Positions 3,988-60,099 of a stretch of DNA of 64,000 bases are shown in pieces; the first letter of the stretch is position 1, and every line of letters begins with the position of its first letter. Position numbers and translations under genes: made by a program. The notes under the pieces are model-generated. The model was not told where the DNA came from and made no database searches. It saw only the letters and a program-made list of their open reading frames with translations. The DNA comes from Myxococcota bacterium (GTDB taxonomy: Bacteria > Myxococcota_A > UBA9160 > UBA6930), in NCBI GenBank assembly GCA_965223705.1, contig OZ245015.1, positions 1,664,001 through 1,728,000 on the forward strand, in the 5' to 3' direction.

Positions 3988-4064
3988 GGGGCGGTAGTTC
4001 AATTGGTTAGAGCACTGGCCTGTCACGCCAGAAGTTGCGGGTTCGAGTCCCGTCCGCCCCGCCA
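3988..4064 (+). tRNA. tRNA-Asp (GTC)
   Basis: Acceptor stem GGGGCGG/CCGCCCC, anticodon arm CTGGC-CT-GTC-AC-GCCAG, T-loop GTTCGAGTC, encoded G-CCA end; 77 nt. Confidence 0.98.
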
Positions 4065-4067
4065 TTT
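4042..4067 (+). repeat. att site, tRNA-proximal copy of a 26-bp direct repeat
   Basis: TTCGAGTCCCGTCCGCCCCGCCATTT, identical to 27120-27145. Confidence 0.95.
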
Positions 4068-4125
4068 CCTTAGCAAATCCGGATAGTTAGAGTCGAACGC
4101 TAGCGCTCGCCGAAGACGCGGGGAC

Positions 4126-7100
4126 TCACATGAAGAGCCGGTAGTCGTAGGCCCTGGTGCCGAACCGCTCGAGCAAAGAACCGATACGCGCGATCTGCCC
4201 GGACGATTCCACGGTTGCGGGTAGCTTCGTATACAGGTCGAAGGTATTCCAGTTCATCTTCGAGAGCCCCAGGATCTCCGAGCACGCGAGGTTGAGGTCG
4301 GACTTGCCGGCATGCCTCTTCAGGACTAACGGGGCGGGGATCCGCCGCTTGCCCTGGTAGTACTTGAAGCGGGGGTTGAGGGCCGTCGCGACCCCATGCA
4401 CCCAGAGGAGAGCTGTGTGCCCGTCGAGTCGGACCACGCTCCCTCGATCGACCGGGAAGTTGTCTTCGTCGAACTGCCCTCCGGGCTTCGCGATCGACGA
4501 TACGTACCGAAGCGCGGGGTCAATGTTGATCTCCAGCATGTCAACTTCGTCGATCCCGCCGAGGCCCTCCATCAAACCGTCGCGCTCGTCGCGCTGGAAA
4601 GGACTCCGCTTGTGGAGCACCACGCGCTCGGGGAGCCGCATCCTCGCCTCGTAGAACAACTGGCGAATGGTCTCCCCGACACGGCGCGCGTCGTCCCGGG
4701 ACAGGAATGGGTTCCCGCCACGGAAGATCGGATCCTCGACCTTGGTGAGCCTATATTGCAACCCCTCTCCGCGGGAGTTGTAGATGTGACTGCAACCCAA
4801 GACGACGTGGCGGCCGCGCTCTGAGTTTTGATCGATGCTGTAGCCGAGCCCCACGAACGCCGTGTTGCTATCGAGGACGTCGAGGACCCAGGGCGTTCGC
4901 ATGCTCTTCACGTAGAGCGCGAGGGATAGCCACCACCAGACCCGACACTGCTGGGGCTCGCGCAGCGTGTGTCCCTCGAGGAACTGCGTCGTGATTCCCC
5001 GCGGAACACAATAGGCCTTCACGAAATCGTGGACGTCGAATCGCTCGCTTTCGGTCCTGAACCGCTTCCACTGGTCAAGGCGATCTGGGACGTACACGAG
5101 CACGACGCTGGGGTCTGACGACGCCTGGATCGCATCCAACGCCTGGGTGATGCTCCGCGCCAGCTCGACAGACCCGGTTCGGGGATGGGTGCCCTGTCCT
5201 GGGACCGAGTACGAGCGCCAGCCCGGCGACCCCGGAGTTGGGAGTTCCAGCGGGAGGCTGAACGCGGCGTCGAAGCCAGGGAAGTCGAGCAGGTAGTCGC
5301 GTTCGTTGCTGAGGGGTGTGTGCCGCCGGTGTGACCGCTGGACGAACTCACTCAGCACCTGCGTCTCCGGTTCCGGGCAGATGACACCCAGCCGAACGCT
5401 CGGGGCGAGGCCGCGCTCCGTGATCGAGTAGTCATACGGCCGATTCTGGGCGACTCCGCGGATCGGGTGGAAATCTCGCACCGCGGTGGTGCCATCCTTG
5501 CTGGCGAAGATGAGCTGGGGCTCCTCCAGCTCGAAGCCGTGGTGCGCGACATGCCGAGCGACACTTTCGGGGATCCGTGCGGCCCCGCCTCCGGAGCGAG
5601 CGAGCAGGGCCGCGAAGATTGGGGTGCGTCGGATCTCGAACGTGAAGGGCGTCTGAGAGCCGGTGGGGTAGTGAAACTTCCTGCGCTTGTCCGAAAACAG
5701 TCGGCGTCGCCACCCCTCTACTGCGCGATTGAACTTGTTGTTGTGCTGCCAGCCGAGCACCGCCATGCGGACTCGGCGCTCCACCTCCTCAGGAGCCTCG
5801 CTCCCGTCCGCGGCTTTCACGGTGACGGAAGGTTTGACGACGAGGTACTGCTTGCCCCCGATGCGCCTCAGGTAGAGCACCGCGGAATTGTGAACCGACC
5901 ACTCGCGCTCGCCCTCCCACCGCTTCTCCTGAGGAGCGGGGTCCCAGAGTCGGGCGCGTCCGTCGGTTTCGAGGCCCGCGGTGCTCGCGATCGACCTCGC
6001 GAGAGCCCGCCTAAGCAACGACACGATGGTGCCGGTCTCCAGCCGAAGGTCGCTCTCTCCGATCGGCGTCCGCTCCACCGAACCCTTGATGAGCCCGTCG
6101 AAGGCCGCGCGAATCGAGTCGACGTCTCCCATACACGCAATTCGCCCTCGGAACGGAATGGCGACCAGGTCGTGGCCCTCTGTCTTCCCTTCTACCCACG
6201 CCCACGCGCGCTCCTCCGGCCATTCCGTCGGTTCGAACTCGTAGACCTCCGACGGGCACCGGATCTCGAAGGCGTTGCTCTTGATCAGTGACCCCGCCCC
6301 CACTGGCTCGGCAGTGAAAGGCTCCCTCTCCTGCGCTTGCTCGATGGCTTCTACCGCCTTAACGCGGATTCCCTCGTTCGCTTCGCCATCCAGGCAGCGA
6401 AGCGCGAGGCGCGAGAGGAGATCGTCGAAGCCCTGCGTAGGAACTAGAAACGCGGAGCGCCCATTTCGACGAGCCGACTCGATCAGCTCCAGGACTCGCG
6501 GCGGGACATCTTCGTCTCCGTAGACGCACCAGTAGATGGCGCCGAGCCCAGGAGCGGAATAGGCCGCTTCGAGGGTGTCCATCACCGAGTCGTCGCGTCC
6601 GCTGTAGCCTGCGACGATGAGGGGCCGGTCCGTGATCCACTCCACGAGCGACGAGCGCAATTTCTCATCCTGGTGTTGAAGTTCTGATGGAGTGTTTCGA
6701 AGGTGGTCGTAGCGATAGTCGCCGTGGAGAGCGACACAAAGCAACTCCCCGGAGCGCACCCGACGCGGCAGTCGCCCGCGTGTGTCGAGCCCGACCTCGA
6801 TGGCAGAGAGGCTGAAGTCCGCGGCGGCTCGCACGGGGAGCTGGTCGAAGTTGGTACTCCACGCCGAGTCAACGATCCCAGCTTCTGCTAGCGCGCAGAG
6901 TGCCTTGTAACCGATGTGCGGGCGCGCCGGCTGTATCACCCTCTGGAACCAAGCGCGTCTGTCCTCGGTGACGGGGAAGCACTGCTCGATGTAGAACCCG
7001 TACTCCTCGGACGACTCCAGCACGGGGAACCCGCCGCGTCGATCCAGCCAGCGCTGGATCTCTTGGCGCACCGCGGGCAGCGAGAGCTCGGAGAACTGCG

Positions 7101-7287
7101 CCTCGAGGCCAGGGTTGTTACTCAGGAAGATTTCTCGCTTCCACTCCCAGACGCAGCGGTCCGCGGACGGAACGCCCGAGGTGATGGAGGTTCCAGCACC
7201 GAGGAAGAACGCGTGAGGCGTGTCGCGGTTTACCGCGACGGAGCGAACGAGCGCGTCGAGCGAGAGCGAGATCGCAGGTTCGTCCAC
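4126..7287 (-). CDS. SIR2-APAZ-short prokaryotic Argonaute fusion (single-chain SPARSA-type NADase defence protein)
   Basis: SIR2 motifs FLGAGTSITSGVP, STNFD, LHGDY, GYSGRD; MID motif HDFVK...TQ...YVK; PIWI C-terminus LSKMNWNT...LPATV...YDYRLFM; no DEDX tetrad (GLG where D is expected). AGGAGG lies 9 nt before GTG 7287; the ORF is open to 7308. Confidence 0.93.
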   Translation of the reverse strand: MDEPAISLSLDALVRSVAVNRDTPHAFFLGAGTSITSGVPSADRCVWEWKREIFLSNNPGLEAQFSELSLPAVRQEIQRWLDRRGGFPVLESSEEYGFYIEQCFPVTEDRRAWFQRVIQPARPHIGYKALCALAEAGIVDSAWSTNFDQLPVRAAADFSLSAIEVGLDTRGRLPRRVRSGELLCVALHGDYRYDHLRNTPSELQHQDEKLRSSLVEWITDRPLIVAGYSGRDDSVMDTLEAAYSAPGLGAIYWCVYGDEDVPPRVLELIESARRNGRSAFLVPTQGFDDLLSRLALRCLDGEANEGIRVKAVEAIEQAQEREPFTAEPVGAGSLIKSNAFEIRCPSEVYEFEPTEWPEERAWAWVEGKTEGHDLVAIPFRGRIACMGDVDSIRAAFDGLIKGSVERTPIGESDLRLETGTIVSLLRRALARSIASTAGLETDGRARLWDPAPQEKRWEGEREWSVHNSAVLYLRRIGGKQYLVVKPSVTVKAADGSEAPEEVERRVRMAVLGWQHNNKFNRAVEGWRRRLFSDKRRKFHYPTGSQTPFTFEIRRTPIFAALLARSGGGAARIPESVARHVAHHGFELEEPQLIFASKDGTTAVRDFHPIRGVAQNRPYDYSITERGLAPSVRLGVICPEPETQVLSEFVQRSHRRHTPLSNERDYLLDFPGFDAAFSLPLELPTPGSPGWRSYSVPGQGTHPRTGSVELARSITQALDAIQASSDPSVVLVYVPDRLDQWKRFRTESERFDVHDFVKAYCVPRGITTQFLEGHTLREPQQCRVWWWLSLALYVKSMRTPWVLDVLDSNTAFVGLGYSIDQNSERGRHVVLGCSHIYNSRGEGLQYRLTKVEDPIFRGGNPFLSRDDARRVGETIRQLFYEARMRLPERVVLHKRSPFQRDERDGLMEGLGGIDEVDMLEINIDPALRYVSSIAKPGGQFDEDNFPVDRGSVVRLDGHTALLWVHGVATALNPRFKYYQGKRRIPAPLVLKRHAGKSDLNLACSEILGLSKMNWNTFDLYTKLPATVESSGQIARIGSLLERFGTRAYDYRLFM

Positions 7288-7483
7288 GGATCGAATCCTC
7301 CTGACCACCGGCGACGGGTGCCGGCACGGTTTGGAGTTCTAGGCTCGGAGGACGACCCGAGGGGGGAGTTCAGGCCAAACAGCTAGTCTACCGAACGGGG
7401 TACGCCGACGACATCCAGCCTCCCGCGAGGTGCGTCGCAGGCACCCCCGGTCGTCCCTGTATCGTCCTTCCTAACACGAGCAA

Positions 7484-9034
7484 TTACTCCGCCCCAACGT
7501 CGTCAAGTAGGCGGTGCAGATCGCGCACCTTTTCGGTGAGCGTCTCGATCTGATCGCCGAAGGCCTTGCGCATGATCTCGGCTCTCTTGAGGATCTTCTC
7601 GCTGCCGCTCTTGATCGTTTCCGCTGAGCGGGTCACCTCGTCGAGGCCGCGCGCCTGCTTCTCGATCTCAAGGATGGCGCGCTCGATCGCATCGAAGTCG
7701 GCCGCTTCGGCATCGCTGCGCGCACGTCCGCGTGCGCAGAGCGCCCGCGCTACCGACACGCCAGCGACGAGGACCACGTCGCTTCGGGTATCCTCAGCAT
7801 CCCACACCAGAACGACATCGTTCCCGTAGCGTCCGAGAGGCTCGAGACCTTCAGGAGCACTACACGCCGAGAAGACGAAGAGCCCGACCGTCGCATCGCG
7901 GTTCTTGCGCGCTTCCTCAGCCTCAGCGAGAGCCTTCTGGAGGGTGTACGACGCGTCCTCCTTTGCTTCGGTTACGATCCGCGCCCCGGCCGCAGCGTGC
8001 TCGGGGCCGAGCTCGATAACTGCGTCTCCCTTCTTGCAGTTTTTGATTCGACCGGTGGTGTTGCCGGTGGGCGTGGCGATATCACCTGCTCTCTGGCTGA
8101 GGCTGTTGAGCTGCTCGAACACCGCATGTTCGAAGTCGTCGCCATGGCGCGTCGAGCGCGCGGCCTCCTGCTTTCGCGCGACCATCTCCGCGAGCTTCCC
8201 TAGCACCTCGCCGTGGAAACGCTCGTTCGCCTGCCGCTGGGTATCGATCACCTCGAGAAGCTCACGCTTCATGCGCGCGAGCGCGGAGCCCTCGTCGTCG
8301 AGGGAGAACTCGCTGCTGATTTGGTGCTGCGCCTGCTCGACGCGGCCCACCAGGCGCGAGAGTGCTGAGTCTTCTCGATCGAGCGAGAACTCAGCCATCA
8401 CCTCGCCGATCCGTTTTTCGAGCGCCTCGCTCACCTCGCCGTGGTGCTCAGCTAGCTCCACGACGAGGCGAGAGAGGGCGCCCTCCTTGTTGTCGAGGGA
8501 AAACTCGGAGAGGATCCGCTCGCGCTGCTCGCCCAGCGTCTTCTCCACGGAGACGGCCAGCGATCCGACGAGCCCCTCGGAAGCCTCGGGATCGAGGAGC
8601 TGCATGAGGGGGCTGTGTTCGCCCAAGTGGCCCGCGAGGGTCTGGGCCAGCTCCGATCCTTCGCTGCCGATCTGGCTGCGCAGCAGCCGCTCGAGCTCAC
8701 CGTCCCGCCGGATCAGGCGCTCGACCCGTTCGTTGAATCGGCCGCTTTTAGGATCGAAGTACCCCTTGAGGCAGGTCCCGATCTGCTCTGCGACGGTACG
8801 CTGGTGATGAGACAGCGCCTGGCCAAGGTTCTCGAGTAGGCGATCGCCTTCGGCGCGCACGCGCTCGGCGTCGATTCGGCCTTGCGCCTGGGTAAGCGCG
8901 AGCGCCCCGATCTTCATCGAGGCGATAGCGAAGTCGTGGCGCTCGCGGCCATCCGGATGGGGCTCGAGGGCGGCGCACAGGTCGCGGTCGGAGACGATGA
9001 GCTGGAGCTCGATGCTGTCGATATGGGCGCTCAT
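7484..9034 (-). CDS. Coiled-coil/internal-repeat protein with a C-terminal PD-(D/E)xK-like domain (RmuC/DUF2130-like architecture)
   Basis: RBS AGAAAGGA before ATG 9034; three EFSLDxxxxALxR repeats; HGDDFE...KGDAVI...VTEAKED. Confidence 0.7.
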   Translation of the reverse strand: MSAHIDSIELQLIVSDRDLCAALEPHPDGRERHDFAIASMKIGALALTQAQGRIDAERVRAEGDRLLENLGQALSHHQRTVAEQIGTCLKGYFDPKSGRFNERVERLIRRDGELERLLRSQIGSEGSELAQTLAGHLGEHSPLMQLLDPEASEGLVGSLAVSVEKTLGEQRERILSEFSLDNKEGALSRLVVELAEHHGEVSEALEKRIGEVMAEFSLDREDSALSRLVGRVEQAQHQISSEFSLDDEGSALARMKRELLEVIDTQRQANERFHGEVLGKLAEMVARKQEAARSTRHGDDFEHAVFEQLNSLSQRAGDIATPTGNTTGRIKNCKKGDAVIELGPEHAAAGARIVTEAKEDASYTLQKALAEAEEARKNRDATVGLFVFSACSAPEGLEPLGRYGNDVVLVWDAEDTRSDVVLVAGVSVARALCARGRARSDAEAADFDAIERAILEIEKQARGLDEVTRSAETIKSGSEKILKRAEIMRKAFGDQIETLTEKVRDLHRLLDDVGAE

Positions 9035-9067
9035 GGTGGTGTCCTTTCTCGTTCTCGCCCGAGAATT

Positions 9068-9083
9068 TGCAATGCCTGTGCCA
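9068..9083 (-). promoter_or_regulatory. sigma54 (-24/-12) promoter
   Basis: Minus strand TGGCAC-AGGCA-TTGCA, an exact TGGCAC-N5-TTGCW match ~35 nt upstream of the 9034 start. Confidence 0.85.
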
Positions 9084-9202
9084 CCCAACGCGCCTGTCCG
9101 GAGCGTAGAGAAAATCGCTTTTAATATGGTTAGTTATGAGATTGCCGGATCCTCGCGGCCACTCAAACTATCGACCCGGTCACCCGATATCTTGTTGGAT
9201 AA

Positions 9203-9216
9203 ATAAGATTTCTTAT
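9203..9216. promoter_or_regulatory. Candidate upstream activating sequence (palindrome)
   Basis: ATAAGA-TT-TCTTAT in an AT-rich patch ~120 bp upstream of the sigma54 promoter, flanked by two GATATC sites. Confidence 0.55.
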
Positions 9217-9471
9217 GAAATAGATATCGTCGCAGTCGTCGGCGACAGTCACGCGCGTCCCCAGCCAGCTTCGCGCCCCGGCTGCCCAAGCGACGGAGCA
9301 GTCCGAACGAGTCGGAACGACGATCTCGTACTTGGGCCGGGGGCGCGCGTGGCCCGAGGGTCGGTCTGTCGATGCCCTGGTCGTACCTTCGATGAGGCCA
9401 GAGTCGAATGGGGATCTCAATGACCTCGGCTAGCGGAGAAACCGCATAGCGAGGGCGGACATTGGCATCGG

Positions 9472-10368
9472 CTAGATGGCCTTGGTGATACGGAACCCGT
9501 CCGCGAACCGGAGCGCCGTTCCCTCACGCACGTCACGCAGGCGACGAGTCCAGATTTCATCCTCGAGTATCCGGATATCCGTCGTCGAGCCCCGCTCCTC
9601 GCTGAGGCCATAGTCAATCGCGATTCCCCCACGTTCCGTCAGGATATACCGAGCGTGGGCTCGTTCCCCTCGCGGCAGGCGATCCCAGCGCAGAATCTCT
9701 AGCTCGATCGACCCAGGCAGAACCGAAAGAAGGGCCTCTTCGCAGTCTTGCCGGAACTCTTCCTTGAGCCTGCGATCTGCCCTCGTGTGGAACTGGCAGA
9801 CCGTTAGATCTGCAGCCCGTGGCTCTACGATCCCCAGCAGGGCACAGAGAACTGCTACCCGGTCTGGAGCTTGGGGCTCAAAATACGGATCCACGAAATA
9901 GAGCTCGCGGCTGACTCGAAGTAGGCCCCCAGCACACTGAGCGATCGCCCTGGCCTCTCGCGGGACGACTGCGCCACGATCGACCTTCCAACGCCCATCC
10001 TCTGGATGCCAGTCGTCGGTGAGAACGCGACGAGAGCCAGCTGGGTTCGTGCTAGCGATGATCGCTCTGAAGGGCTGGCGCTTGTCCTCAGCAATGGCGT
10101 TACTGATCCACTCCTCTTCTTCGGACCACCGTTGACATGGGCGATCGACGAGCAGCGAACTAATGCGCTTCGCAATTTCTACCGCCCGTATCCGATCGAG
10201 CTCGCTCAGCCTGCTCAGATGCGGCTTGACGCATTCCTTCCAGTCATCGGGGAATCGCGCCACGAAACGACCGGCATCGGGACCAAAGGCGTCCCAGAAG
10301 TACCGGAACTCCTTTGGGTGCGACCAAACGGCCATCAGTTCAGGCTCGACTGCAAACTCGGAGTGCAT
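9472..10368 (-). CDS. Hypothetical protein with a putative PLD-like (DPY...HxR) nuclease domain
   Basis: FVDPYF and HARYILTERGGIAIDYGL motifs; starts 3 nt after the ATPase stop. Confidence 0.6.
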   Translation of the reverse strand: MHSEFAVEPELMAVWSHPKEFRYFWDAFGPDAGRFVARFPDDWKECVKPHLSRLSELDRIRAVEIAKRISSLLVDRPCQRWSEEEEWISNAIAEDKRQPFRAIIASTNPAGSRRVLTDDWHPEDGRWKVDRGAVVPREARAIAQCAGGLLRVSRELYFVDPYFEPQAPDRVAVLCALLGIVEPRAADLTVCQFHTRADRRLKEEFRQDCEEALLSVLPGSIELEILRWDRLPRGERAHARYILTERGGIAIDYGLSEERGSTTDIRILEDEIWTRRLRDVREGTALRFADGFRITKAI

Positions 10369-10371
10369 TGC

Positions 10372-11943
10372 TCAGAAGAGTTCCTTAACCCGCTCTTCGA
10401 AGAACCCTTGCGGCCAGCGATCGACGAATTCGCCGCGATCGCTGATGGCCAATGGCGTCACCCGGACCTCTCCCTCCTCCTGCTCTACAAATAAAACGGA
10501 AAGCTGATTCGCAGCCAGGCGGGGCCGACCCGGCTCGACCTCGCCCCGATGCGTCTCTTGGATTCTTCTTAGCAGTCGAAGCATCAAGTGCTCACTGTGC
10601 GTTTCAAGGATGCAAATGCCGCTTCGTGCCGTTGCTCTCCACGCGAACAAGTCCCCGAGCTCCACCTGAACGCTCGGATGAACGTGGAGTTCCGGCTGCT
10701 CTATCGCGATCACACGCGGGGAGGCTTCTCCGTCAGAATCAGTCGCTGCGACAATCACTGGAACAACCTGCGAAATTCCGATTCCAACATCCGTCGGAGC
10801 AACAGGCAACTGCCGCTCGAGATCAACCACAACGACGCGCCTGTGGGTAGGCAACCGATTCAGCGCTTCAGAGATCGCCTCAGCGTCATCGATCAGAGCA
10901 CGTGATCGAAGCGATGCCATAAGGAAGCTCTCGAGAGGGAGCTCTTTATACTCTTCAATTCGAACAGCGCTACCCGAGCCGATCCGATCCAGCCATCGGT
11001 TCACCTGCAAGACAAAAGTGTCGTCGGCTCCGATGAGCCGGTCCCAGGCAGCGAGTCCGGTGGACCACCTTGATATATCCGGCGTTAGCGGTGCTGAGTA
11101 TCCCCTCGGCGGCGTCTCGCGGATCGGCCCCAGGTACCGCAGCGAGGCCAGCTCCGAACGCAACATCCCGCCGAGGCCTGCGAAGAACGCCGTCAAGCGA
11201 TAGATCAGGCTCCCGCCTCTGTACGGCTCAACTACTTCAACTCCGTCGAAGTCCAGCCAAAGAGCATCATCCCAAAGGGGAACCGCAGACGAGTGCATCT
11301 CGGGACATTCGAACCGGTCAAACTCGGCGAGGTCATCATAGAACTCCTGAATGGCCTCATCAGTCTCCTCTGAACGAGAGTTTCCTACGACTCGATTCCA
11401 GTTGTACCGGAGAAGAGGATGCGAGAAGTTCAGGCCGCACAGATCGACCCTTTGTCCGTCTGCTGCGACACGTAGTTCGCCTACTGATTCACCGTTTACC
11501 TCGAGTGCAAATCCGGTGACTGTCGATCGCTCCAACCGGTCGTGCCAACCGATCGTCAGCTCTACACAGAACTCCTGGACCTGCTTGTAGAGCTCATTGT
11601 TGTAGTCTCGAAGCTCGACCCACCGATGAGGCTCGCGGGTTCGTTCAGGAATGTCATTGCCCTGCGGATCGACACAGAAGCGGATCACTACGTCCCGCTC
11701 CTCCTTCTCCCTCAGATGGACAAGACTCTCGAAACCTCCAAGATCCACAAAGGGGCCACCGACCTCAGTTGTGTCTGGATCAGAATTCCGATGCTCTAGA
11801 ATCTCTCGCGCGTAGTGCAGTGAGTGGAGCACCGAGCTCTTGCCGGCGCTGTTGGGGCCGAAGAGAAGCGTTAGCGGCTTGAGGTCGACGCGCGTCCGGC
11901 TCCCTACGCCCTTGAAATTCTCAATCTCAACCGCAACAAGCAT
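10372..11943 (-). CDS. ABC-type ATPase (AAA_15/AAA_21-like) with a DUF3696-like C-terminus
   Basis: Walker A GPNSAGKS, signature VGIGISQ, Walker B IEQPELHVHP, H-loop ETHSEH, C-terminal WPQGFFEE; ATG overlaps the hsdS stop. Confidence 0.88.
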   Translation of the reverse strand: MLVAVEIENFKGVGSRTRVDLKPLTLLFGPNSAGKSSVLHSLHYAREILEHRNSDPDTTEVGGPFVDLGGFESLVHLREKEERDVVIRFCVDPQGNDIPERTREPHRWVELRDYNNELYKQVQEFCVELTIGWHDRLERSTVTGFALEVNGESVGELRVAADGQRVDLCGLNFSHPLLRYNWNRVVGNSRSEETDEAIQEFYDDLAEFDRFECPEMHSSAVPLWDDALWLDFDGVEVVEPYRGGSLIYRLTAFFAGLGGMLRSELASLRYLGPIRETPPRGYSAPLTPDISRWSTGLAAWDRLIGADDTFVLQVNRWLDRIGSGSAVRIEEYKELPLESFLMASLRSRALIDDAEAISEALNRLPTHRRVVVVDLERQLPVAPTDVGIGISQVVPVIVAATDSDGEASPRVIAIEQPELHVHPSVQVELGDLFAWRATARSGICILETHSEHLMLRLLRRIQETHRGEVEPGRPRLAANQLSVLFVEQEEGEVRVTPLAISDRGEFVDRWPQGFFEERVKELF

Positions 11944-13127
11944 CAGAGCTTGTCCCGGAAGGCACGTTGAGAGAGACTTTCGAAGAGAGGTTCTTGGGCC
12001 GAATCCCGCAGCTGAGCTTCCAACGCCCGAACGGTTTCGATAGAACGACAGAACTGCTCCTGAACCTCTAACGGCGGAAGAACTATCGGTGTTCCTCGCA
12101 GCGAAGCGAGATCCAGACGCTTTGTGCCGTGAGCTGCAGTAGAGATGCGCGCCAGCAGGAACCCCGACATTGCCCTAAGCGTCCAGAGCAGAAACTCTGG
12201 CATTGCTCGATCGGATGGACGCACCGCCTTTAGATCCTGGTTGATCGTCAGGGGCGCACAAGACAAGGCAACTGGCATCGTATGCGCCAAGATCATCCCC
12301 CGGACAACAATCAGCACTGCACCGGGCGCAACAATTTGCACTCGTCCCTGGGCAACGGCCGCCTCACTGATATGGTCCTGCGCATCCTCCAGGTAGGCGC
12401 ACTTCATATCCTTTGGCGACACCCACGGAATCCGCCCACCCCAGAAACTCGGCTCCTGTTTCGATGGCGTAGCCCCGCTCGATATGCTGGTCTCATCTCC
12501 GATCGTTGAAGCTGGCCAGCCTCGATCGTTAGTCACAGGATCACCGAACAGCTCAGAGTAAATTGCGAGCGGGAGGTCTTCGCTGAGAGCGATGGCTTCG
12601 TGGTGTTTCCGGCGGATCGCATCAGCCTTATCAAGAAGAGACACAATCCGGTCCTGCTCCGGTCTTGGCGGCACTGGGACTTCGGTGCTGGCCACGCTCC
12701 TCGTGTTGAGGGTCATTCGCGTCGAACCTTTTGTCTGAGCTAACGAAGCTCGCTGACCGTCGGCCGAGTTGAGATAGCGGGCCAGGAACTCCGGAGTTAC
12801 GTCTCGAAGGCCCTTGATCGCTATCAGGCCAGCGCAGTTGGCTTGGCCAAGGTCTTCCGGGATCACAGCGGCGGTCCCCGACTTGCCGATCCTCACGACC
12901 ACTACGTCACCCGGGGATAGTTGAGATTTTCGCTCTGAAGCGTGGAATTCCCGCGAGACGAACTCCAAGTCCTCTAGCTCGAGCCCATTGGCCCTCACGT
13001 TCTTCCCCATCAGGAACGGGATCCCTTCGGGAACTCGATGCTCTTTGCTCGGGCCGACATGGCCTACGACCACTCGATCGCAAATATCAGCGATCTGCGC
13101 CGTCCGCCACGATTCGGGGGCCCTCAC
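11943..13127 (-). CDS. hsdS: Type I restriction-modification specificity subunit
   Basis: Two TRD halves each ending in PVPP/LPPL-EQ conserved helices; SGATPSK...IPWVSPKDM; follows hsdM. Confidence 0.93.
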
Positions 13128-14704
13128 GATCCAGTCTCGCTGTTCTTCGAGAGGAGTTCCCGGAGGCTATCGAGTTCACGAACGATGCCCGACTCCAGCG
13201 CGCGGATCTTACCGATGATCTGAATCGGAGTTTCGTAGTCCGGCTCTTCATAGACCGTCTCCCTGTATCGCGCGACGGAAAGATCGAAATCGTTCTTAGC
13301 GATCGTCGATCGATCAACAAAGAACGCCTTACCAGTGCGATCCGTATCCTTCTTTGGGTCGCGCTCGATCCAACGCTGGAGGCAATCCGGCAGGTCGTTT
13401 GCGTTGACAGGCTCCCGCTTGTCATCCAAAGAACGGCCATCAGCCTCCAAGTCATAGAAGAAGACATCGGCAGTCTTGCCGCCGCGCGTAAAAACCAAGA
13501 TCGCCGTCGACACACCGGCATAGGGCCTGAAGACGCCGGACGGGAGTGAGACCACCGCCTCGAGCTGATTCTCCTCAACTAGCAGCTTTCGGATTGCAAG
13601 ATGCGCCTTTGAGCTACCGAACAGGACCCCATCCGGCACCACCACGGCTGCGCGCCCACCGGGGTCTTTCAACATGCGGAGCGTAAGCGCCAGAAAGAGG
13701 AGCTCAGTCTTCTTCGTCTTGACCTTGCCAGTAAGGGTCGGATCAACATCCTCCGCGTCGAGGCTGCCCTTGAAGGGTGGGTTGGCCAGAATCACGTCAA
13801 AGTGATCGTCTGCGAGCTCCGGTCGATTCTCGCGGAAACCGCGACTAAGCGTATCCTGGTAGTAGATATGGGGATTCGAGACATCATGGAGCATCAGGTT
13901 CATCGCCGCGATGCGCAGCATGGTTACGTCGAAGTCGAAGCCGTAGAACATCCCCTTCTGGATGTGGTCACGGTAGGGCTCGAGGAGATCGCCCGTGTAC
14001 ACCATCTGAGGTTCGCCGTCGTCACCAAGAACAGACTCCCCCTCCTCATCCTCAGCTGGGAACTGGCCCTCCTCTGACGAGTAGTTTCTCAGTAGGTACT
14101 GCATCGTCTGGACAAGGAAACCGGCTGTTCCCGCCGCGGGATCGCCTACTATCTCGGTAGGCTTCGGATCCACCAGCGACACCATCAAGTCGATGATGTG
14201 TCGGGGGGTCCGAAACTGGCCGTTGATGCCCGCTGTTGTGAGCTTGCTGAGAAGGTACTCGTAGAGGTCGCCCTTTGTGTCGCCCTCCCCTAGCGGCAGC
14301 TCGTCGATCAGCTTGATGGCCGCGTAAAGCAGGCTCGGCTTCGAGATGATGAGCTGGGCGTCCTTCATGTACTCGCCGAGGCGATTCTGTTTCTCCGCGA
14401 CGGCCCGGATGTGCGGGAAGAGCTCGTCGCGGACGACGGCGAGCATGCGCTCGGCGTCCCCGTCGTGCTTGAGCTTTGACCAGCGCAGGCGCTGAGTGTC
14501 CGGGCCGAAGAGATGGCCGGGGAACGGTTCGCCTCGGTTCTTGCGCGTGAAGACTCGCTCGTCGCGCGTCTCCCGGATGTCGAGCAGGCGGGCGAACATC
14601 AGGAAGGAGATCTGCTCAATGACCGTGAGCGGGTTGGTGATGCCCCCCGTCCAGAACTGCTCCCAGAGTTTGTCGATCTGACTGCGTAGCTTGCCGGTGA
14701 TCAT
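13124..14704 (-). CDS. hsdM: Type I restriction-modification N6-adenine methyltransferase
   Basis: [36 protein letters not shown]. Confidence 0.97.
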
Positions 14705-17700
14705 GAGTACATGCCCTCGGGACCGGGTTCGGTCGGGGTGGGTTCGGGGTTCGCGCCGGGCTCCGGGCTCTCGAAGCTGGCGATGAGACCGAGCAGCTGG
14801 TCGATCTGGGCCTCGTCGCCGAAGAGCCCGTCGATTCCGTCGGGGTCGAGCGACGTGAACGGCGGCTCGTAGAGCCGCTCGAGCTCGATCGCCCCCGCGC
14901 TCGCGATAAGGCTCTTGAGCAAGCTCAGGAAGCGCACTTGCCGGGCATTCAGCGCAGGGTGCTGATGGACAAAGGCTTCGAAGCGCTTCTCGACAGCCTC
15001 ACCGTCGAGCCCAATCACGCGGCGAATCGCCAGATCGAGGTGCCCTGCGGTCTTCGGGTAAAGCTGCTCGAGCTTGGCGAGGTCGACGTCGGGGTTCTGG
15101 GTGAGGACGAGGCTCACGAGTTCGTCCAGGTCCTGCCGGCCGACGGGGCGGCCGGCCTTGATCTTCCGCAACGTCTCGTTGCTGGCCAGAAGGTCGCGCA
15201 GTACCTGTTCGACCCGCTTGCGCCAGCCCACCAGGTCGAGGCCCTCTATCTTGACTGTGTGCTCGCCCTCGCGCACGAGCATCGGGTCTTCGGCCACGTC
15301 TACCACGTGGGCATAATCGGCGGGGCTGACCAGGCGCTCGCGGTACTTCATGATGGCCCGCAGCTCGCGCCGGACTTCCTCGAGCGCCGCGAAGTTCGGA
15401 GCGTCCCAGAATTCGACACCTTTCACCTGTGCGATCGCATCTGCCTTGGCCTTGACCTGGGCGAGGTTCATCTTGAGCTGGGAGAGGGCATTCAGAAGGT
15501 CGCCCTTCAGATCCTGAAATTCGCTCGCCTCAGCGATTCGAGCCCGCTGGAGGCGGGTCATCAAGAGATCGAACTCGTGGGCTTCCACATGGCCGCGGAT
15601 GTCCCGCTCCTTCATGAGGGGCGCTACCTCTTGGAGCAGGGCCGCCTTGGTGGCCGGGTCGAACTGCTTCAGGATCTGGGTGTCGCCCACTTTCTTCAGC
15701 GTCCGCCAGGCGTCACGCACGGCGATCGTCCCTGAGTCCTCGAGACTTGCTATGTCCTGCCGTAGCAGTTCAACCACCAACTCGAATGTAGGTAGCTCGG
15801 GTTTACGGAGCGCGGCTTCGGCGAGCTCCACGCGGTTCTCAAACAGCTGATGGAGGAGCGACTTGCGAGGCGAGGGCGTTGGTTCGACGTAGGTCTGGCC
15901 GAAGAACTCGAAGTTGCCCCAGTGATCGAAGACCAGAAACTCCTTCTTGTGCTCGCCGTAGCCAAAGAGATTCTCGCACTTGCGAGTGCCGCGACCGATC
16001 ATCTGCCAGAACTTGACATAGGACTTCACGGGTTTGGCGAACACAAGGTTTACGACCTCCGGGACGTCGATGCCTGTGTCGAGCATGTCGACCGAGATGG
16101 CGATCTGGATGTCGTTGTGCTGGCCCTGTCCCTTGAAATCGTCAATTAGTTGCTCTGCACGCGGATCGTAGTTGTCGATGACCGTGCAGAAGCTGCCTCC
16201 GTAGTGCGGGTAGAGTTCGTCGAAAAGCTCCTTCAGAAGGACGGCGTGGCGGTGGCTGCGCGCGAAGACGATCGACTTCCCTGGCACCTGGCCGCTTACG
16301 TCGCGGATGCCGTTATTGATCAGGTTGCGCAGCATCTCGCGGTTCGTGTCCTTGTTGAAGATGAAGCGGTCGAGTTCGGCGGCCTCGTAGTCAAAGCTCT
16401 CAGCATTCGAAATCTGTTTTTCGAGCTGTGCCCGCTGCGCCTCATTCATCTGTGCCCACTTCATTCCCTTGCGCTGGAAGCCGGTTTGAAATGTGCGAAC
16501 GTGAAGCGGGACGAGGACCCCGTCATCAATGGCGCGGTCCAACGGATACGAGGCCGTCGGGTCTTGGTCCTCGCAGCCGAAGAGATCGTAGGTGTTGCGA
16601 TCGATGAAGCGCACCGGCGTCGCCGTGAGCCCGACTTGGAGCGCGTCGAAGTAGTCGAAGAGATCCTTGTAGCGGTTGTAGATGCTGCGGTGAGATTCGT
16701 CCGCGATCACCAGATCGAAAAAGCCCACGTCGAAGCTCTCGAAGCAACTCTTCATCGCCGGATAGGTGGCGAAGTAGATTTGGTGCTCCCGCTCCTGGGC
16801 AGTTTTGGCCGTCACCGCAACTCGCTTGGCGTTCGGGAGGAGCTGCTTGAAGGCGTTCAATGCCTGCTTGCGGAGCTCGCGCCGGTCGCATAGGAAGAGA
16901 ATGCGTTTAGCGCGATTGGCTCGAAGGAGCACGTCAGCGAGCGAGATGGCCACTCGGGTCTTGCCAGTGCCCGTTGCCTGGACGATCAGCGCCTTCCGGC
17001 GCCCCTGGTCGAAGCGCTCGCCCACACGCTTCACGGCCTCCACCTGGTAGAGGCGGCCGGCGATCTCGTCGCTGATCGGCACTTCCTCGAGTCGGGCCCG
17101 CTCGCCGCGCTGGAAGTGGAGATAGGCGAGGCTGTCCTTTGAGTAGAAGCCGTACAGCTTGCGATCGACCTCGTTCTGGGCGTCATCCCAGAGGTAGAGG
17201 TCGAAGCCGTTGGTGTAGAAGATGACCGGGCGCTGTCCGTACATCCGCTCGAGGCCGTCGGCGTAGAGCCGGGCTTGGTACCGGCCCTGGACGGCCTCGA
17301 TTGAGGTCTTTTTTACCTCAACGACAGCCAGCGGCTTTTCCGCATCGTCCCAGAGCACATAGTCCGCCCGACCCTTGCCGCTCTCCGTCGGCTGGTAGTC
17401 GACCTCGACCTCTTGGCCCACCTGGGCCGTGTTCTTACCCGCTTCCCCAACCACCCATCCAGCGGAAACCAGCATGGTTTCGACGAGGAACTTCCTGGTG
17501 TCGGACTCATTAAAGGAGAGCTCGCTCGCGGCCCGCTGACCGGACTCGACAATGATCTGAAGCTCTTGTGCGGTCTTCTCTGCGTCCTCGGCCTTCGCAC
17601 GCGCAGCGTCCAGCTCCGTCAGGATTCTCTCCATCTGCGCTTCCTGGGCGGCGAGCTTCTCAAGCGCAGCCGTTTTCTCTCGCTTAAGCTCGGCCTTGGT

Positions 17701-18207
17701 CACGCCAGCCGCGCCCCCCGACGGGGGCAGTGTGAACTTCGGGCAATCGCTCTGCGCACCCTTGTCCACCGCCATGTGGAGCCAGCTGCCGAGGTGATAG
17801 ACCTCGCTTAGCGCCCGGCGCGCCATATCGAAGTTGACGGCGCCGCCGTGGGCCGCCTTGTTCCCAAGTTTCCGGACAGCGTGAATCTTGGTCAGCACCA
17901 CCTGGGGCACCGAGTCCTTGAAGGGCTGACCGTCGAGGAGCGTGAAGAAGTCAGCGTCATAGGGCTGAGAGAGACCCAGCACCACGTAGAGGTCGTTCGT
18001 CATCGCCTCTGCGAAAGTGCGGAGCTTGATCAGCGCGCTCGCCGGGTCGGGGTGCAGGTATTGCTCGGCGAAGCCACCGAGATCAGCCAGGTAGGTGCGC
18101 TTGTTGCGGAGGAACTCGAAATTGACGGATTTCACCACGGCGGCTTTCTCCCGGAGATCCGCGAGGTCCCCAAACGGGCCAGCTGTGTGCGTTTCCTCGG
18201 CTGACAT
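14701..18207 (-). CDS. hsdR: Type I restriction endonuclease R subunit (EcoAI/EcoEI-like, DUF4145-like N-terminus)
   Basis: Nuclease ADYVL...VEVKK; Walker [36 protein letters not shown] before ATG 18207. Confidence 0.96.
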
Positions 18208-18258
18208 TTGCACTCTCCCACAGCGCATGGAGCCATACCCCCGTCGGTCGAGTGTTTG

Positions 18259-18274
18259 AGCAAGGCGCGTGCCA
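18259..18274 (-). promoter_or_regulatory. sigma54 (-24/-12) promoter for the hsdRMS operon
   Basis: Minus strand TGGCAC-GCGCC-TTGCT, directly after the activator stop codon and ~50 nt before hsdR. Confidence 0.85.
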
Positions 18275-19798
18275 TCATCGCGTCCCGGCTTTCTTGGGGG
18301 CGTTAACGCCGTATTTTCCCATCCAGTTCGTGAGGGTTTGGTAGCTAGGCAGCCCTACCAGCTCGGCCGCCTTCGTCTTATTCCCATCAGCCTCGCCGAG
18401 GGCCCGCTCAAGGTAGTGCTTGGCCAATTCTGCCATCAAATCAGGTAGTTGCAGCTCTTTTCCAAGCGGGCGACCGAGAAGGTCCGTAGTCTTGCCCTGA
18501 ATCGGTTGGAGGAGCTCCTCGCGGACGTCCTCCACCCCAATTTTGGCACCGGGCGTCCAGAGCACGAGCCGATCCATGGTGGCCTGCATCTCGCGGACGT
18601 TCCCAGACCATTCGTGTCGAAGCAGAAGATTTCTTGCTTGAGGAGAAAGGGTCTTCTGCTCAAAAGTGGGTTGGTCGGCAAACTTCTCGTTGGCAGCGGC
18701 AAGAAAGTGGTCGAGGAGTGGAGTTAGGTCGCCCTGACGCTCCCGCAGAGGGGGCAATCGGATGACGCCGGACGCCAGCCGGAAGTAGAGGTCCTCCCGG
18801 AAGGTGCCCCCTGCCACTTCAGCCCTCAGCTTGCGGTTGGTGGCGGCGATGATTCGAACGTCAACCTTCACGGGGTTACTGCCGCCAACTCGCCGGATCT
18901 CCCGTTCCTGGAGTGCACGCAGGATCTTCGCCTGGGCCGCGAGCGGGAGCTCGCCGATCTCGTCCAGAAATAGTGTCCCGCCAGCCGCGGCCTCGAAGTG
19001 ACCAACGTGGCGTTTGTCGGCGCCGGAGAACGCGCCTTTCTCGTGACCGAACAGTAGAGACTCGACTAGGCCCTCTGGCAGCGCCCCACAGTTCACGTCT
19101 TCGAATGGCTTCTCAGAGCGGCGGCTGGCCGCGTGGATTGCCCGAGCGAAAAGTTCCTTGCCCGTGCCCGATTCACCCTCGATGAGGACGGTCGTATCGT
19201 GAGGCGCGACTCGTCGGGCTCGAGCAATCGCGCGGCTGAGCGCCGGACTGCGTCCGACGATCTGGGCGAACTCGGGGGCCTCTGGGGGTAGGCCCGCGGT
19301 CAGGCGTTCGAGTTTCTCGTCCGTGCGGCGAAGGGCGCGCGGAACGTACTCGGCTGCGAGGTCGAACGGGAATGCGACGCCGCGCACGCCACGCTCAACG
19401 CTCGACTGGATCAGCTCCGCAGGGAATCGCGTCTTCGCGAGCAGAATCCAAGCCGCCTGCATCGACGGGGTGCCCGGGCTGATGTGGGCCGCTAAGTCTG
19501 CTTCTTTACCGAACTCCGCGTGTGTGAACTCGATCGCCCGCTCTACGGCCGCGACGATCTCGTGGAAGTCCGTCGGGTCGTCGAGTGTTTCGATTCTCAG
19601 GTGGATCGGAGACCCGCCCCGATCTTCCAGCCATTCTGAGTACTCGCGACTCTCGCCCTCGTCGTAGTTCGACAAGAGGACAACTGCATCGAAGGTTCGA
19701 GCGTCGAGTACGCTCGCCGTCGGGCCCGCGCCCGGCCTCTTGCCCGTGGAGCAGTCGAGATCGGTCCGGCCGAGCCATGCGAGGAGGATCTTCGGCAC
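18275..19798 (-). CDS. sigma54-dependent activator with an N-terminal RtcR-like CARF domain
   Basis: N-terminal ILLAWLGRTD...DPTDF...HISPGTP; AAA+ GESGTGKE, GAFSGA, LFLDEIG, FREDLYFRL, WSGNVRE; C-terminal Fis-type HTH (GNKTKAAELVGL). GTG 19798 is the preferred start; the ORF is open to 19846. Confidence 0.9.
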   Translation of the reverse strand: MPKILLAWLGRTDLDCSTGKRPGAGPTASVLDARTFDAVVLLSNYDEGESREYSEWLEDRGGSPIHLRIETLDDPTDFHEIVAAVERAIEFTHAEFGKEADLAAHISPGTPSMQAAWILLAKTRFPAELIQSSVERGVRGVAFPFDLAAEYVPRALRRTDEKLERLTAGLPPEAPEFAQIVGRSPALSRAIARARRVAPHDTTVLIEGESGTGKELFARAIHAASRRSEKPFEDVNCGALPEGLVESLLFGHEKGAFSGADKRHVGHFEAAAGGTLFLDEIGELPLAAQAKILRALQEREIRRVGGSNPVKVDVRIIAATNRKLRAEVAGGTFREDLYFRLASGVIRLPPLRERQGDLTPLLDHFLAAANEKFADQPTFEQKTLSPQARNLLLRHEWSGNVREMQATMDRLVLWTPGAKIGVEDVREELLQPIQGKTTDLLGRPLGKELQLPDLMAELAKHYLERALGEADGNKTKAAELVGLPSYQTLTNWMGKYGVNAPKKAGTR

Positions 19799-20181
19799 AG
19801 TCGAAGCATAAGAAAATTTGCGCTCGGCTCCACTTTCGTACCTCAACCAGCAGGGCCGGCACGAGCCGGGCTGGCAACACGCAAGAATGGCGCGCTGCGC
19901 TTGGTCAACACGAGCCCGGCCCTCCCGGGAGAGCGACGCGGGTACGCGCCTCTCGGTAGTTCGCGAGACCGCCTCGCCCCGAGCATGGAAGCCGGATCTT
20001 CCCAGCTCCAGCAGCGACGACCTCGTCCCTGGGACTGTACTTGCCGCCTGTTTTCAATCCGTTGCGAACTCTGACGACAATCGCGATTTCCACGACATGA
20101 ATGGTGAGAATCCGGCAAGGGTTTCGCACCGGTGGCGATTCTCTTGGCTGGGAGACGCCGCAGGCGGGACACTCAGGCCGA

Positions 20182-20855
20182 ATGCCGCTCCGAAACATCT
20201 TCGATCAATACGACCAGAACGAAAACCGCCTTACGCACGCGCTGTGCTGTGCTCTTGTTGAGGACGACAGCTCCTTCGCGCGTTTCTGCTGGACTTCGCA
20301 GATCGAAGGGTGTCAACGCGCGTCGATCTCGAAGTCGAAGAGCAGTCAATCCCTGGGGAGGTCGCGCCACCGGGTGACGAAGAAGATCAGCGGCGCGGCC
20401 TACCCGACGCTTGGATCCACTCGAACCATGACTGGGCCGTGCTCGTAGAGAGTAAGGTCACCGCACCCGTCGAGGTCGATCAACTTCGACATCACCACAA
20501 CATGGCTCGCCGTCAGGCTACCAAGAGGGCACCTGGTGCCGCACCTTGGTTTATCGGACTACAGCGTCGCTATCCAAGCCAGCACTCTGTCCCAATCGTC
20601 GACGCACGGTTTGAATTCGATCTGCGAACGCTGGTCCGCGATCATGAGAGTTCCGTCAAGACCCAGCCGATCTTTCTTCAGGCCGCCTACTCGGCAATAC
20701 AGAATCGCGCACCGAACTTTCAGGCTGGGGTCGGACTCAAATTGTCTTATCGATACTGCCCAGCCACATCCTCGCCCGAAGCGTTAGGGCTCGTTGCGGA
20801 TGCTTGGCTCGCATGTAGGCCACTCATCGATCTGCTCCTGAACCCTGAGAAGTAG
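20182..20855 (+). pseudogene. Frameshifted PD-(D/E)xK-like nuclease gene
   Basis: MPLRNIFDQYDQNENRLTHAL in one frame continues as LLRAFLLDF...GLPDAWI...LVESKV in another; consistent with a 1-nt loss near 20270. Confidence 0.62.
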
Positions 20856-20864
20856 GATTTGCGT

Positions 20865-21644
20865 ATGGAAGCGATTGGACTCGATGTTGGCTTCTCTGCT
20901 ACCCGACCCAGTTCTGGGGTCGCGCGATTCTCTTCCGACGGGATCCTGCGAGTAGGTCATGCGACTTCCGACTGGGCAAGCCGCAGCGCAGTCGCCGGTG
21001 AGGAGGCCGTACAGGTTGCAGCGATTGACGCCCCTTACACGAGAATCGCAGAAAGTGAGCCTCGGGCATGCGAGCGAGTCTTTACGCTCGGGCCCTTCGG
21101 CGGCCGATGCAAACCCGGATTGTCCCATGTCCCCGGCACGGGACGCGAACTCCGAAGAGCAGGGTGGGAGACCGCGCAACAGCTCAAGCCACTCGCGCCA
21201 AGCGAGCCTCTTCGTGTTCAGTTTCCACGTATCGAAGACTGCAACGTTGTGGAGGCGTTTCCGAACGCGTATCTCGGAGTGTGCGTGCCGTCCAGTATCT
21301 ATGACACGAAGCCGCCGCTACGACGGGGGAAGAAGTTCGACTGGCTCTACGAACGATGGGTTGACTCGGGACTCTTCCATCGAGCTGCTCGGGAAGCGGG
21401 ATTGCCTGATAGCGTGGCTGAGCTGTGCGATTCGAACACTCAACACGACGAGCGCGCCGCGCTCGTTTGTTTGCTGACCGCGAGTGGTGTTTTCCTCGGT
21501 CGCTACACCGCTGTCGGAGACCCCGCCGGTGGGTACTTCTTTCTACCAGCGTTCGAACTCTGGGCCGACTGGGCGAGAGAAGCGATCGAACGTCAGAGCG
21601 TTCGCGTGCCCGAAATCGAAGTTTGGAAAGACGGCACGCGATAA
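20865..21644 (+). CDS. DUF429-family predicted RNase H-fold nuclease
   Basis: IGLDVGF, AAIDAP, VVEAFPN, HDERAALVC motifs. Confidence 0.75.
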   Translation: MEAIGLDVGFSATRPSSGVARFSSDGILRVGHATSDWASRSAVAGEEAVQVAAIDAPYTRIAESEPRACERVFTLGPFGGRCKPGLSHVPGTGRELRRAGWETAQQLKPLAPSEPLRVQFPRIEDCNVVEAFPNAYLGVCVPSSIYDTKPPLRRGKKFDWLYERWVDSGLFHRAAREAGLPDSVAELCDSNTQHDERAALVCLLTASGVFLGRYTAVGDPAGGYFFLPAFELWADWAREAIERQSVRVPEIEVWKDGTR

Positions 21645-22139
21645 ACGCTGACGAGCGACCGGGAGCGGGCCGCGTGCTGAGGAAGCTACTCAGGTGCCAG
21701 CGAGCGGACGGCTATCGACACGGTCCAAAGCCTAGGAGCACCTGTACACTCGCACCTTCGCAAACGCGTCGATGGAGACGTTAGATGACCTCTGGAGACT
21801 TTCCAACGTAGACCGTCCCGGGTTTTATCTCTTGAAAGCAACCAAGCTCATACAGCGCTGAGGATTGGCAACCTCGGACACGAAACTCTTGTTGCCCCGA
21901 ATGCTGCATCTCGCACTTGCGCATAGCCACCTCGACCATGGCGCTCGTCGTGCCCACTTTGCAGACGAGGCCGATAGCCAGGGCTCCTAGCAAGGCGTGC
22001 TTTCCCATAGCTAGTGATACGACGGCCACGCCAAGGTGGACGACCGATGCATCAAGATGACCGGACCCGGCGTCGACATCGCGACGTGTCGACAAGCCCT
22101 CTCCAATCCACTGTCGCGTTGCGGGCGTAGAGAAGAGGT

Positions 22140-23036: not shown

Positions 23037-23066
23037 AGACACGAAGGCGGGACGATCGGTCGATTG

Positions 23067-23521
23067 CTAGTCCTGCAAGAACGAGGCAAGGCACGGATGG
23101 CTGGTGAGGGCGGACGCAACTGAGATCGGTGTATAGACCTCGTAGGTCCCCTGCGATGCGGACATTTGAACTCGGAGCTGCTCGTCGCCGAGTTCGTAAA
23201 CCTGGGTGACGAAAGTTCCTGCTTCTTCTGAGCGAAACTCGATCGTAAGGACTGCTCCGTCACGATTGGTCACTTCGAACTCCGAAATTGGGGAACACCG
23301 CCCCTCGAAAACGCCGATCGCTTCTCCCCCCGGAATACTTGGATCATATGTCCGAAGAGGTTGGGGTCGGCGACGATCTCCCACTGCTCGTCGGAATACT
23401 CAACCTGCTCGCTGAGACCCGACAAGGTCAGGGCTCGGTTCGATCTCCAGACGCCTTCCAATTCGGTTTTGGACTGAGAGCACGCGAGGAGGGAGGCCGC
23501 GAGAATTACTAGCCACCGCAT
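23067..23521 (-). pseudogene. Lipoprotein split by a frameshift at a G6 run; paralog of 52821-53285
   Basis: Lipobox LLAC; ORFs 23270-23521 and 23067-23384 join into one protein colinear with the intact paralog if one G is added at 23326-23331. Confidence 0.75.
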
Positions 23522-23663
23522 TTGGGGTGGATCGACGCACGGGCCCCGCCAGTTGAGCTCGGTAGCCGTCGGACGGCGGTGTCCCAGGGTTCAGGATGAA
23601 ATGAAGCCCACGCGAAGGAACAGCGGAACGAGAGTCGTCGGCCAGACGATCGAATCGCACAGG

Positions 23664-23681
23664 AGACCTTTTAAAAGGTCT
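23664..23681. promoter_or_regulatory. Perfect 18-bp palindrome, candidate operator
   Basis: AGACCTTTT/AAAAGGTCT between divergent genes. Confidence 0.5.
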
Positions 23682-23737
23682 TGAGATATTCTAGAGCTTC
23701 GCCGAATAGATAGGTGCGCAACGAAGAGGAGTGACAA

Positions 23738-25554: not shown

Positions 25555-25621
25555 CAGTACGCCGAAAACACCGACATGGATGAAACACCCGCGAGGCGCA
25601 CTTCAGACGTCGCCGGCGGAC

Positions 25622-26890: not shown

Positions 26891-26902
26891 CCAGAAAAAA
26901 GG

Positions 26903-60067: not shown

Positions 60068-60099
60068 GGAGAACCCGCGACACCCGAACGGGAGAGACC

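Follow-up and report, generated by a model that had tools for sequence, protein, structure and literature searches.

What are a gene encoding an ABC (ATP-binding cassette) ATPase and another for a 298-residue protein doing at the end of a type I restriction–modification (R-M) operon, and do they belong to a defence system that already has a name? The question is raised by a 64,000-nucleotide stretch of DNA from a Myxococcota bacterium (GenBank assembly GCA_965223705.1, contig OZ245015.1, positions 1,664,001 to 1,728,000 of the forward strand), which we call the window. An earlier reading of the letters alone (the sequence-only reading) had proposed that the pair might guard the R-M system, with a phospholipase D (PLD)-like nuclease as its effector. 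We have found that an ABC ATPase followed by a protein with PIN-like and PLD domains is a widespread and conserved two-gene module without a name, in which the pairing is near-obligate. We favour, with rather better than even confidence, the view that in this genome it would serve as an anti-phage nuclease back-up that can be induced, being transcribed with the R-M genes from a predicted CARF-controlled sigma-54 promoter.

The genes concerned lie on the minus strand in the order CARF regulator, hsdR, hsdM, hsdS, ATPase and 298-residue open reading frame (ORF). The tight junctions reported earlier are confirmed in the sequence: the A that opens the ATPase start codon ATG also closes the hsdS stop TGA (TGATG, an overlap of 1 nucleotide), and 3 nucleotides (GCA) separate the ATPase stop from the ATG of the 298-residue ORF. 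The features are:

9472..10368, minus strand: 298-residue effector, PIN-like domain (~1–125) and MITD1/BrxL-type PLD domain (~130–295), from the AlphaFold2 model, fold matches and conservation
10372..11943, minus strand: 523-residue ABC ATPase with a large insert and a C-terminal DUF3696 tail (Pfam, PADLOC, model)
11943..13127, minus strand: hsdS (Pfam, PADLOC)
13124..14704, minus strand: hsdM (Pfam, PADLOC)
14701..18228, minus strand: hsdR with DUF4145, HSDR_N, ResIII and EcoEI_R_C (Pfam, PADLOC)
18259..18274, minus strand: sigma-54 −24/−12 promoter-like site of perfect consensus (motif scoring with controls)
18275..19846, minus strand: CARF and sigma-54 enhancer-binding protein of RtcR_PspF2 type (PADLOC, Pfam)

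Both ORFs of the pair are real genes: a search of 50%-identity representatives with the 298-residue protein gave 1,687 relatives at E ≤ 0.001 (1,050 at 1e-10), and D160, H238 and R240 are conserved in the members aligned. The DPY and HARY motifs remarked on earlier lie at residues 159–162 (VDPY) and 238–241 (HARY), and the suggested PLD fold is borne out by the AlphaFold2 model (pLDDT 95.3, from 142 aligned members). For the domain at 130–295, Foldseek placed MITD1 at the top of its ranking (E 9.4e-5) and Nuc in seventh place, and VIA-align gave MITD1 (2ymb) with Z 10.1 and a root-mean-square deviation (rmsd) of 3.3 over 127 aligned residues, and NucT with Z 10.0. What had been overlooked is the N-terminal domain: residues 1–125 align with the PIN structure 1o4w (Z 7.9, rmsd 3.4, 110 aligned) and with many other PIN entries.

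At ~30% identity among the 142 aligned members, H238 and R240 are invariant, whilst D160 and G254 are kept in 138 and 140, respectively. The pattern H-x-R(x)4-[DEN] is present in all 142, in place of the canonical HKD motif HxK(x)4D. The features of the MITD1/BrxL type are found, that is, the PLD fold, an aspartate after the second strand and HxR. In sequence, BrxL comes closest with its C-terminal domain (7/142 members match it; hhalign probability 85.6), and nothing else recurred in Pfam, PADLOC and NCBIfam scans of the family members. The window protein itself matched no family in these three collections, so that it has no exact counterpart among the systems they catalogue. Comparison of the effector-family profile with the sequences of solved structures gave chance-level matches only, and tblastn of phage records gave none. 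The closest PLD relatives, namely the C-terminal HKD (HRD) domain of BrxL, MITD1 and the PLD of DruE, share D-P/R-Y and H-x-R with the effector, but their fusion partners are an AAA+ ATPase, a MIT domain or a helicase, whereas the PLD domain here is joined to a PIN-like domain in one protein and has an ABC ATPase as its pair.

The evidence for the pairing comes from 92 distinct loci. Scanning genome contigs for motifs supplied 63 of them, less one duplicate, and the others are from profile searches of genome samples and from plasmids (4 records, 3 distinct). The motif-scan loci are biased to one subfamily and the remaining 30 are unbiased in that respect. In two samples of 401 genomes, at least 10 and 18 genomes matched, these being lower bounds with five candidates scored per genome. 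A whole or broken ATPase gene lies directly upstream of the effector in 85 of the 92 loci (60/62 from the motif scan and 25/30 of the others), so that the expected co-occurrence elsewhere is indeed observed. The seven exceptions are five effector fragments (loci L019, L030, L059, L130 and L132 in our numbering), one BrxL (L134) and one weak match (L021), in which the ATPase lies downstream. Named records place the hosts in Acidobacteriota, Verrucomicrobiota, Thermodesulfobacteriota, Planctomycetota, Pseudomonadota, Deinococcota, Bacillota and others. No third conserved gene was found across the related loci.

The ATPase matches AAA_15/AAA_21 and DUF3696 in Pfam, and in PADLOC it scores 143 bits with NsnB, 124 with PDC-M55A, 117 with HEC-03B and 62 with AriA. 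All of the ABC motifs are present (Walker A GPNSAGKS, signature GIGISQ, Walker B IEQPE and H-switch ETHSE). In the model (pLDDT 91.3), the core alone matches SMC, Rad50 and GajA heads. One could suppose that a Rad50/SMC-like ATPase and a PLD DNase together degrade foreign DNA, or the ends cut by the R-M enzyme, without release of a toxin. The best structural matches are to DNA-binding SMC, Rad50 and JetC heads, co-expression with hsdR fits, and in BREX, as in systems resembling R-M, HKD DNases serve as restriction factors (PMC12839542). The matches, on the other hand, reflect the shared ABC core (TM ~0.3–0.4, rmsd 14–28 Å), the ATPase model is without a long coiled coil, and the swapping of effector and tail described below is typical of sensor–toxin modules. 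We consider such a non-abortive helper improbable.

Which named system is nearest? In Menshen, NsnB is an ABC ATPase with DUF3696, one variant of NsnC joins inPIN to a PB-PLD1 domain resembling MIT_C, and the DUF3696 tails are modelled as clamping the PIN domain of NsnC (Li et al. 2025, PMC12065111). The window pair shares with NsnB–NsnC the DUF3696 ABC ATPase with a GxG signature, followed by a protein in which a PIN-like domain precedes a MITD1-like PLD that carries the D and HxR residues, as well as effector shuffling and an association with type I R-M. The domain composition of NsnB (ABC, DUF3696, GxG) is thus found, but a full-length match to the NsnB family (EN, ~380 residues) is not: the window ATPase is ~140 residues longer, its NsnB match of 143 bits is in two pieces, compared with 334 for a canonical NsnB, and it has EQ rather than EN in Walker B. 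Among 74 ATPase rows EQ was seen in 57 (16 not parsed), and EN in the NsnB control only. Likewise, the PIN-like N-terminal domain and PB-PLD1-type C-terminal domain of NsnC are both present by fold and motif, the comparison with the published PB-PLD1 being by description, but PADLOC gave no NsnC match, profile comparison of the effector with an NsnC alignment showed no similarity, and the window pair is under predicted sigma-54/CARF control.

The third Menshen component, NsnA (ParB-DUF262, PF03235), has no match in this 95%-complete genome, and hsdS sits upstream of the ATPase. Using a profile from seven DUF262 proteins, we found DUF262 upstream of the ATPase in 0/92 loci, with one downstream match (L075), and Pfam found it in none of 40 upstream genes; as a positive control, the same profile detected it in 20 NsnB loci. 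When 60 loci from NsnB-profile searches were scored for their partners, they fell into three classes. The first comprises 20 loci with DUF262 and ATPases of 367–394 residues where full length, in none of which a PIN-PLD match was seen (the third gene is out of view in at least three). In the second, ATPases of mostly 430–470 residues have short partners, 9 of the 17 tested matching HEC-03A. The third consists of 8 loci without DUF262, with ATPases of 528–616 residues and PIN or PLD matches. In a 125-row FastTree, 19 Menshen rows lie on one side of a branch (support 97) that excludes the window ATPase. By sequence, then, the pair is a sister of Menshen and not Menshen itself. Menshen loci were seeded on DUF262 (PMC12065111) and NsnA-less pairs therefore lay outside that survey.

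These data also bear on the possibility that the pair is a decayed Menshen that has lost NsnA, or a hitch-hiker with an inactive PLD. Its domain layout equals that of NsnB/NsnC, Menshen loci often adjoin type I R-M and lose domains (PMC12065111), some of our loci are frameshifted or truncated, and the window copy has S256 and Q192. Against this stand the absence of DUF262 upstream in all 92 loci, compared with its detection in the 20 NsnB loci, the branch of their own on which the shorter Menshen ATPases fall (~500–650 residues here), and the invariance of H238 and R240. We regard decay or hitch-hiking as very improbable.

Three further DUF3696-clan ATPases without DUF262 (L146, L151 and L194) are followed by genes of 268–372 residues that fall outside the PIN-PLD profile, those of L146 and L151 matching no PADLOC model; all three may represent further effector classes.

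HEC-03 is a validated defence system (Payne et al. 2024, 10.1101/2024.01.29.577857); it needs both of its genes and also occurs nested within other systems. Like the window pair it has two genes, one for a kindred ABC ATPase of the DUF3696 clan and one for a partner with a PIN fold. Its ATPase is ~430–470 residues long and its partner is a stand-alone PIN protein of ~160–180 residues that has the catalytic acids and lacks a PLD domain. Neither the window effector nor any of the 142 members matched HEC-03A, and an HEC-03A-like alignment showed no profile similarity to the effector. The PADLOC candidate PDC-M55 matches the ATPase in part, but no PDC-M55 model matches the effector or the 142 members. 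Since HEC-03 is validated, pairs from this clan are able to work without a sensor. The window pair is uncatalogued, and likely an anti-phage module akin to Menshen and HEC-03. Beside those two it defines a third branch of the defence clan of ABC ATPases with DUF3696, unnamed in PADLOC, Pfam and NCBIfam, and it offers a minimal two-gene case for asking whether Menshen-type ATPase–effector pairs sense without NsnA. In full-text searches of the literature we found no description of an NsnA-less ATPase and PIN-PLD pair or of its sigma-54 promoter, although supplementary lists may include such loci.

The sequence-only reading had drawn its analogy from PrrC and PARIS. The general idea, an ATPase–nuclease back-up with a different effector fold, is supported in part, but the closest kin are NsnB/NsnC and HEC-03. 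PARIS (AriA–AriB) and PrrC likewise couple an ABC ATPase sensor to a nuclease as a back-up to R-M. The effector of PARIS is the TOPRIM protein AriB, which cuts tRNA; AriB has no match here, where the partner folds as PIN and PLD, and AriA matches the ATPase motifs alone (62 bits compared with 143 for NsnB). PrrC carries ABC and HEPN in one chain, the HEPN effector cutting tRNA, whereas there are two chains here and no HEPN family appeared in the Pfam or PADLOC scans.

How closely is the pair tied to R-M? For the count we used the 68 loci in which an ATPase is present and the upstream DNA extends for 2.5 kb or more, the duplicate being removed and the frameshifted L025 and L066 not counted. The hsd genes lie upstream of the pair in 43, a CARF regulator alone, immediately followed by the pair, in 13 and neither in 12. 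The association with the CARF regulator and with type I R-M is thus seen beyond the window too, with R-M the commonest partner of the pair but an optional one. In a 74-row ATPase tree (FastTree with local supports, as for all trees here), 15/15 rows labelled R-M type a fall in one clade and 23/25 of type b in another. In the two misplaced type-b rows hsdM is truncated, and BLAST assigns it to type a; after relabelling the clades hold 17/17 type a (support 99) and 23/23 type b (support 96), across many phyla. Over 37 loci (pairs above 80% identity dropped; one row has a wrong hsdM ORF), pairwise identity of the ATPase correlates with that of HsdM at 0.71 (0.47 and 0.75 within groups), that of the effector at 0.08. 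In a sliding window along the ATPase, residues 1–465 correlate with HsdM at 0.54–0.73 and with the effector at 0.22 or less; in the tail, 465–523, the values are 0.30 and 0.53. This step fits the swapping of tail and effector cassettes as a unit, and the co-variation of tail and effector agrees with what the Menshen docking model requires. The step at the DUF3696 boundary marks where sensing and effector docking could be separated. A 1:1 complex prediction for ATPase and effector with paired alignments (score 0.01, mark 0.32) gave no evidence for or against such docking, the Menshen model being 4:2.

PrrC guards EcoprrI by binding it. A strict guard of a comparable kind would bind the cognate HsdM/HsdR complex and free the PLD protein when an anti-restriction protein disturbs that complex. 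The mirroring of R-M subfamilies by ATPase clades, the correlation of the ATPase insert with HsdM within groups (0.47 and 0.77) and the persistence of the clade match despite frequent insertions between hsdS and the ATPase all speak for it. The 25 loci without hsd genes upstream speak against it, their catalytic motifs being intact. Five R-M-less loci with intact motifs are among the window's closest ATPases, nested in type-a rows, and only one of these five genomes yielded an almost complete HsdM from the subfamily to which the window's belongs (53%/44%, with a stop within the match). The best HsdM matches in the other four are partial and at most 48%, with no full-length type-a HsdM found, and in five further genomes the best match is 36–39% across most of the protein. 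We think a strict R-M guard plausible yet unlikely.

The regulator upstream of hsdR scores 627 bits with RtcR_PspF2 in PADLOC and matches Sigma54_activat and RtcR in Pfam. A perfect −24/−12 site (18274–18259), also overlooked earlier, has its first base directly after the regulator stop and faces the hsdR-M-S-ATPase-PLD genes. Sites were scored out of 12 against a −24/−12 consensus. A score of at least 10/12 near the regulator stop was found in 26 of 32 tandem loci (16/20 with R-M and 10/12 without), compared with 0/32 on the opposite strand, 8/1600 in shuffles, 5/538 at other genes and 1/129 at hsd genes. The whole genome contains 10 perfect sites and a gene for sigma-54. In four loci with a divergent regulator (L013, L028, L066 and L080) the site flips toward the ATPase or hsdR. 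The regulator is therefore predicted to activate hsdRMS and the pair through sigma-54, which would make the pair an output of the CARF protein. That CARF sigma-54 activators control downstream restriction genes was predicted by Makarova et al. in 2014 (PMC4012209); the part of that paper at hand contains neither promoter evidence nor the ATPase-PLD pair, which is the more constant downstream cargo here. The promoter gives a concrete handle on that prediction, and an R-M system with methylase and nuclease both awaiting a signal would be unusual.

Its relatives, with an ATPase from the clan of the validated defences Menshen and HEC-03, and its context, a tRNA island beside a SIR2-pAgo (prokaryotic Argonaute), make it likely that the pair is anti-phage. 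In the back-up that we favour, a nucleotide or broken-RNA signal would activate the CARF protein and so switch on hsdRMS and the pair. The ATPase, as an oligomer, would hold the effector off through DUF3696–PIN contacts, as modelled for Menshen, until it is tripped by a product of the phage, for which unusual DNA or an anti-restriction protein is a plausible candidate. A PLD active site is assembled from two half-sites, and two released half-sites would combine into one that cleaves nucleic acid and so halts the infection or the cell. A narrower version, in which CARF-sensed damage nucleotides or RNA induce R-M and an Hsd-tuned ATPase that releases a swappable PIN-PLD nuclease on anti-restriction attack, we hold only as a tentative proposal and a rather unlikely one.

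DNA is probably the target rather than RNA, since the MITD1-like PLD pair of Druantia DruE (D-R-Y, H-x-R), the only PLD of this kind with a tested activity, degrades single-stranded DNA and is needed for defence (10.64898/2026.05.13.724313), and BrxL-HRD has been proposed as a DNase (PMC12839542). PLD-type defence nucleases are described as having a more defined substrate specificity (10.1101/2025.07.10.664194). The further suggestion of the sequence-only reading, that RNA cleaved by the effector could feed the CARF sensor, is disfavoured on the same ground as well as on the chemistry of the ends. PLD nucleases leave 3'-OH ends. The CARF domain of RtcR, by comparison, binds tRNA halves with a cyclic phosphate (PMC7790460).

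Several observations weigh against the favoured mechanism. The correlations with HsdM and the effector are obtainable from shared inheritance alone, the kin being not independent. The window effector has S256 where 127/142 members have D and Q192 where 110/142 have E, both PLD positions, so that this copy may be weaker. Acidic residues of the PIN-like domain are kept at positions 8 (94%), 64 (75%) and 118/119 (58–73%), with N at 90; we take these to map by pattern, without superposition, to the D-E-D-D catalytic sites that the PIN domain of Menshen lacks, and the PIN domain here may thus be active and an RNA target possible. The 12 loci with neither R-M nor a CARF regulator upstream, together with a plasmid on which a WYL regulator lies upstream instead of the CARF activator (L135:298-1173), indicate that sigma-54 control is not universal; a WYL regulator is also seen at L014:13328-14395.

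Other arrangements were noted among the related loci. Tandem ATPases or whole pairs stand behind one CARF regulator in L037, L039, L043, L051, L058 and L069, the second ATPase of L058 having its own sigma-54-like site, and in L017:6827-8107 the pair comes directly after a Csx1/Csm6 CARF-HEPN gene. The interval from hsdS to the ATPase is a hot spot for insertions, as seen in L018, L027, L053, L060, L119, L126, L128 and L034/L052/L082, with a cargo of TIR + 8xMP, PIN toxins, prokaryotic Argonaute (pAgo), Gabija-like genes, OLD-type ATPases and a PDC-M54A-like NTPase. In L075, DUF2130 genes precede the ATPase.

The operon itself is carried on a genomic island:

4042..27167, no strand: tRNA-Asp island of ~23 kb, from the terminal repeat of the tRNA 3' end

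The island ends are a 48-nucleotide repeat of the tRNA 3' end (83% identity, 4042–4089 and 27120–27167), and the ORF at 25622–26890 is presumably integrase-like, by its motifs. The operon shares the island with a SIR2-APAZ-Argonaute fusion of 1060 residues (4126–7308, minus strand; PADLOC pAgo 1325 bits, Pfam SIR2_2) that adjoins the tRNA-Asp. Between this and the effector lies a gene for a 534-residue coiled-coil-rich protein (7484–9088, minus strand) without a Pfam, PADLOC or NCBIfam family, the Atlas look-alikes of which are unnamed, with minor shares of Mrr_cat (15%) and DUF2130 (13%). A four- or five-gene system including the 534-residue gene or the pAgo was considered and rejected, the former occurring in 0 related loci and a pAgo match in 2/92 (L053 and L136). 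Elsewhere in the island, the ORF at 20859–21644 (plus strand) has a weak PDC-S44 match, and at 59372–62522 (plus strand) the window contains a run of genes that we take to be PspA-like, YqiJ-like and flotillin-like.

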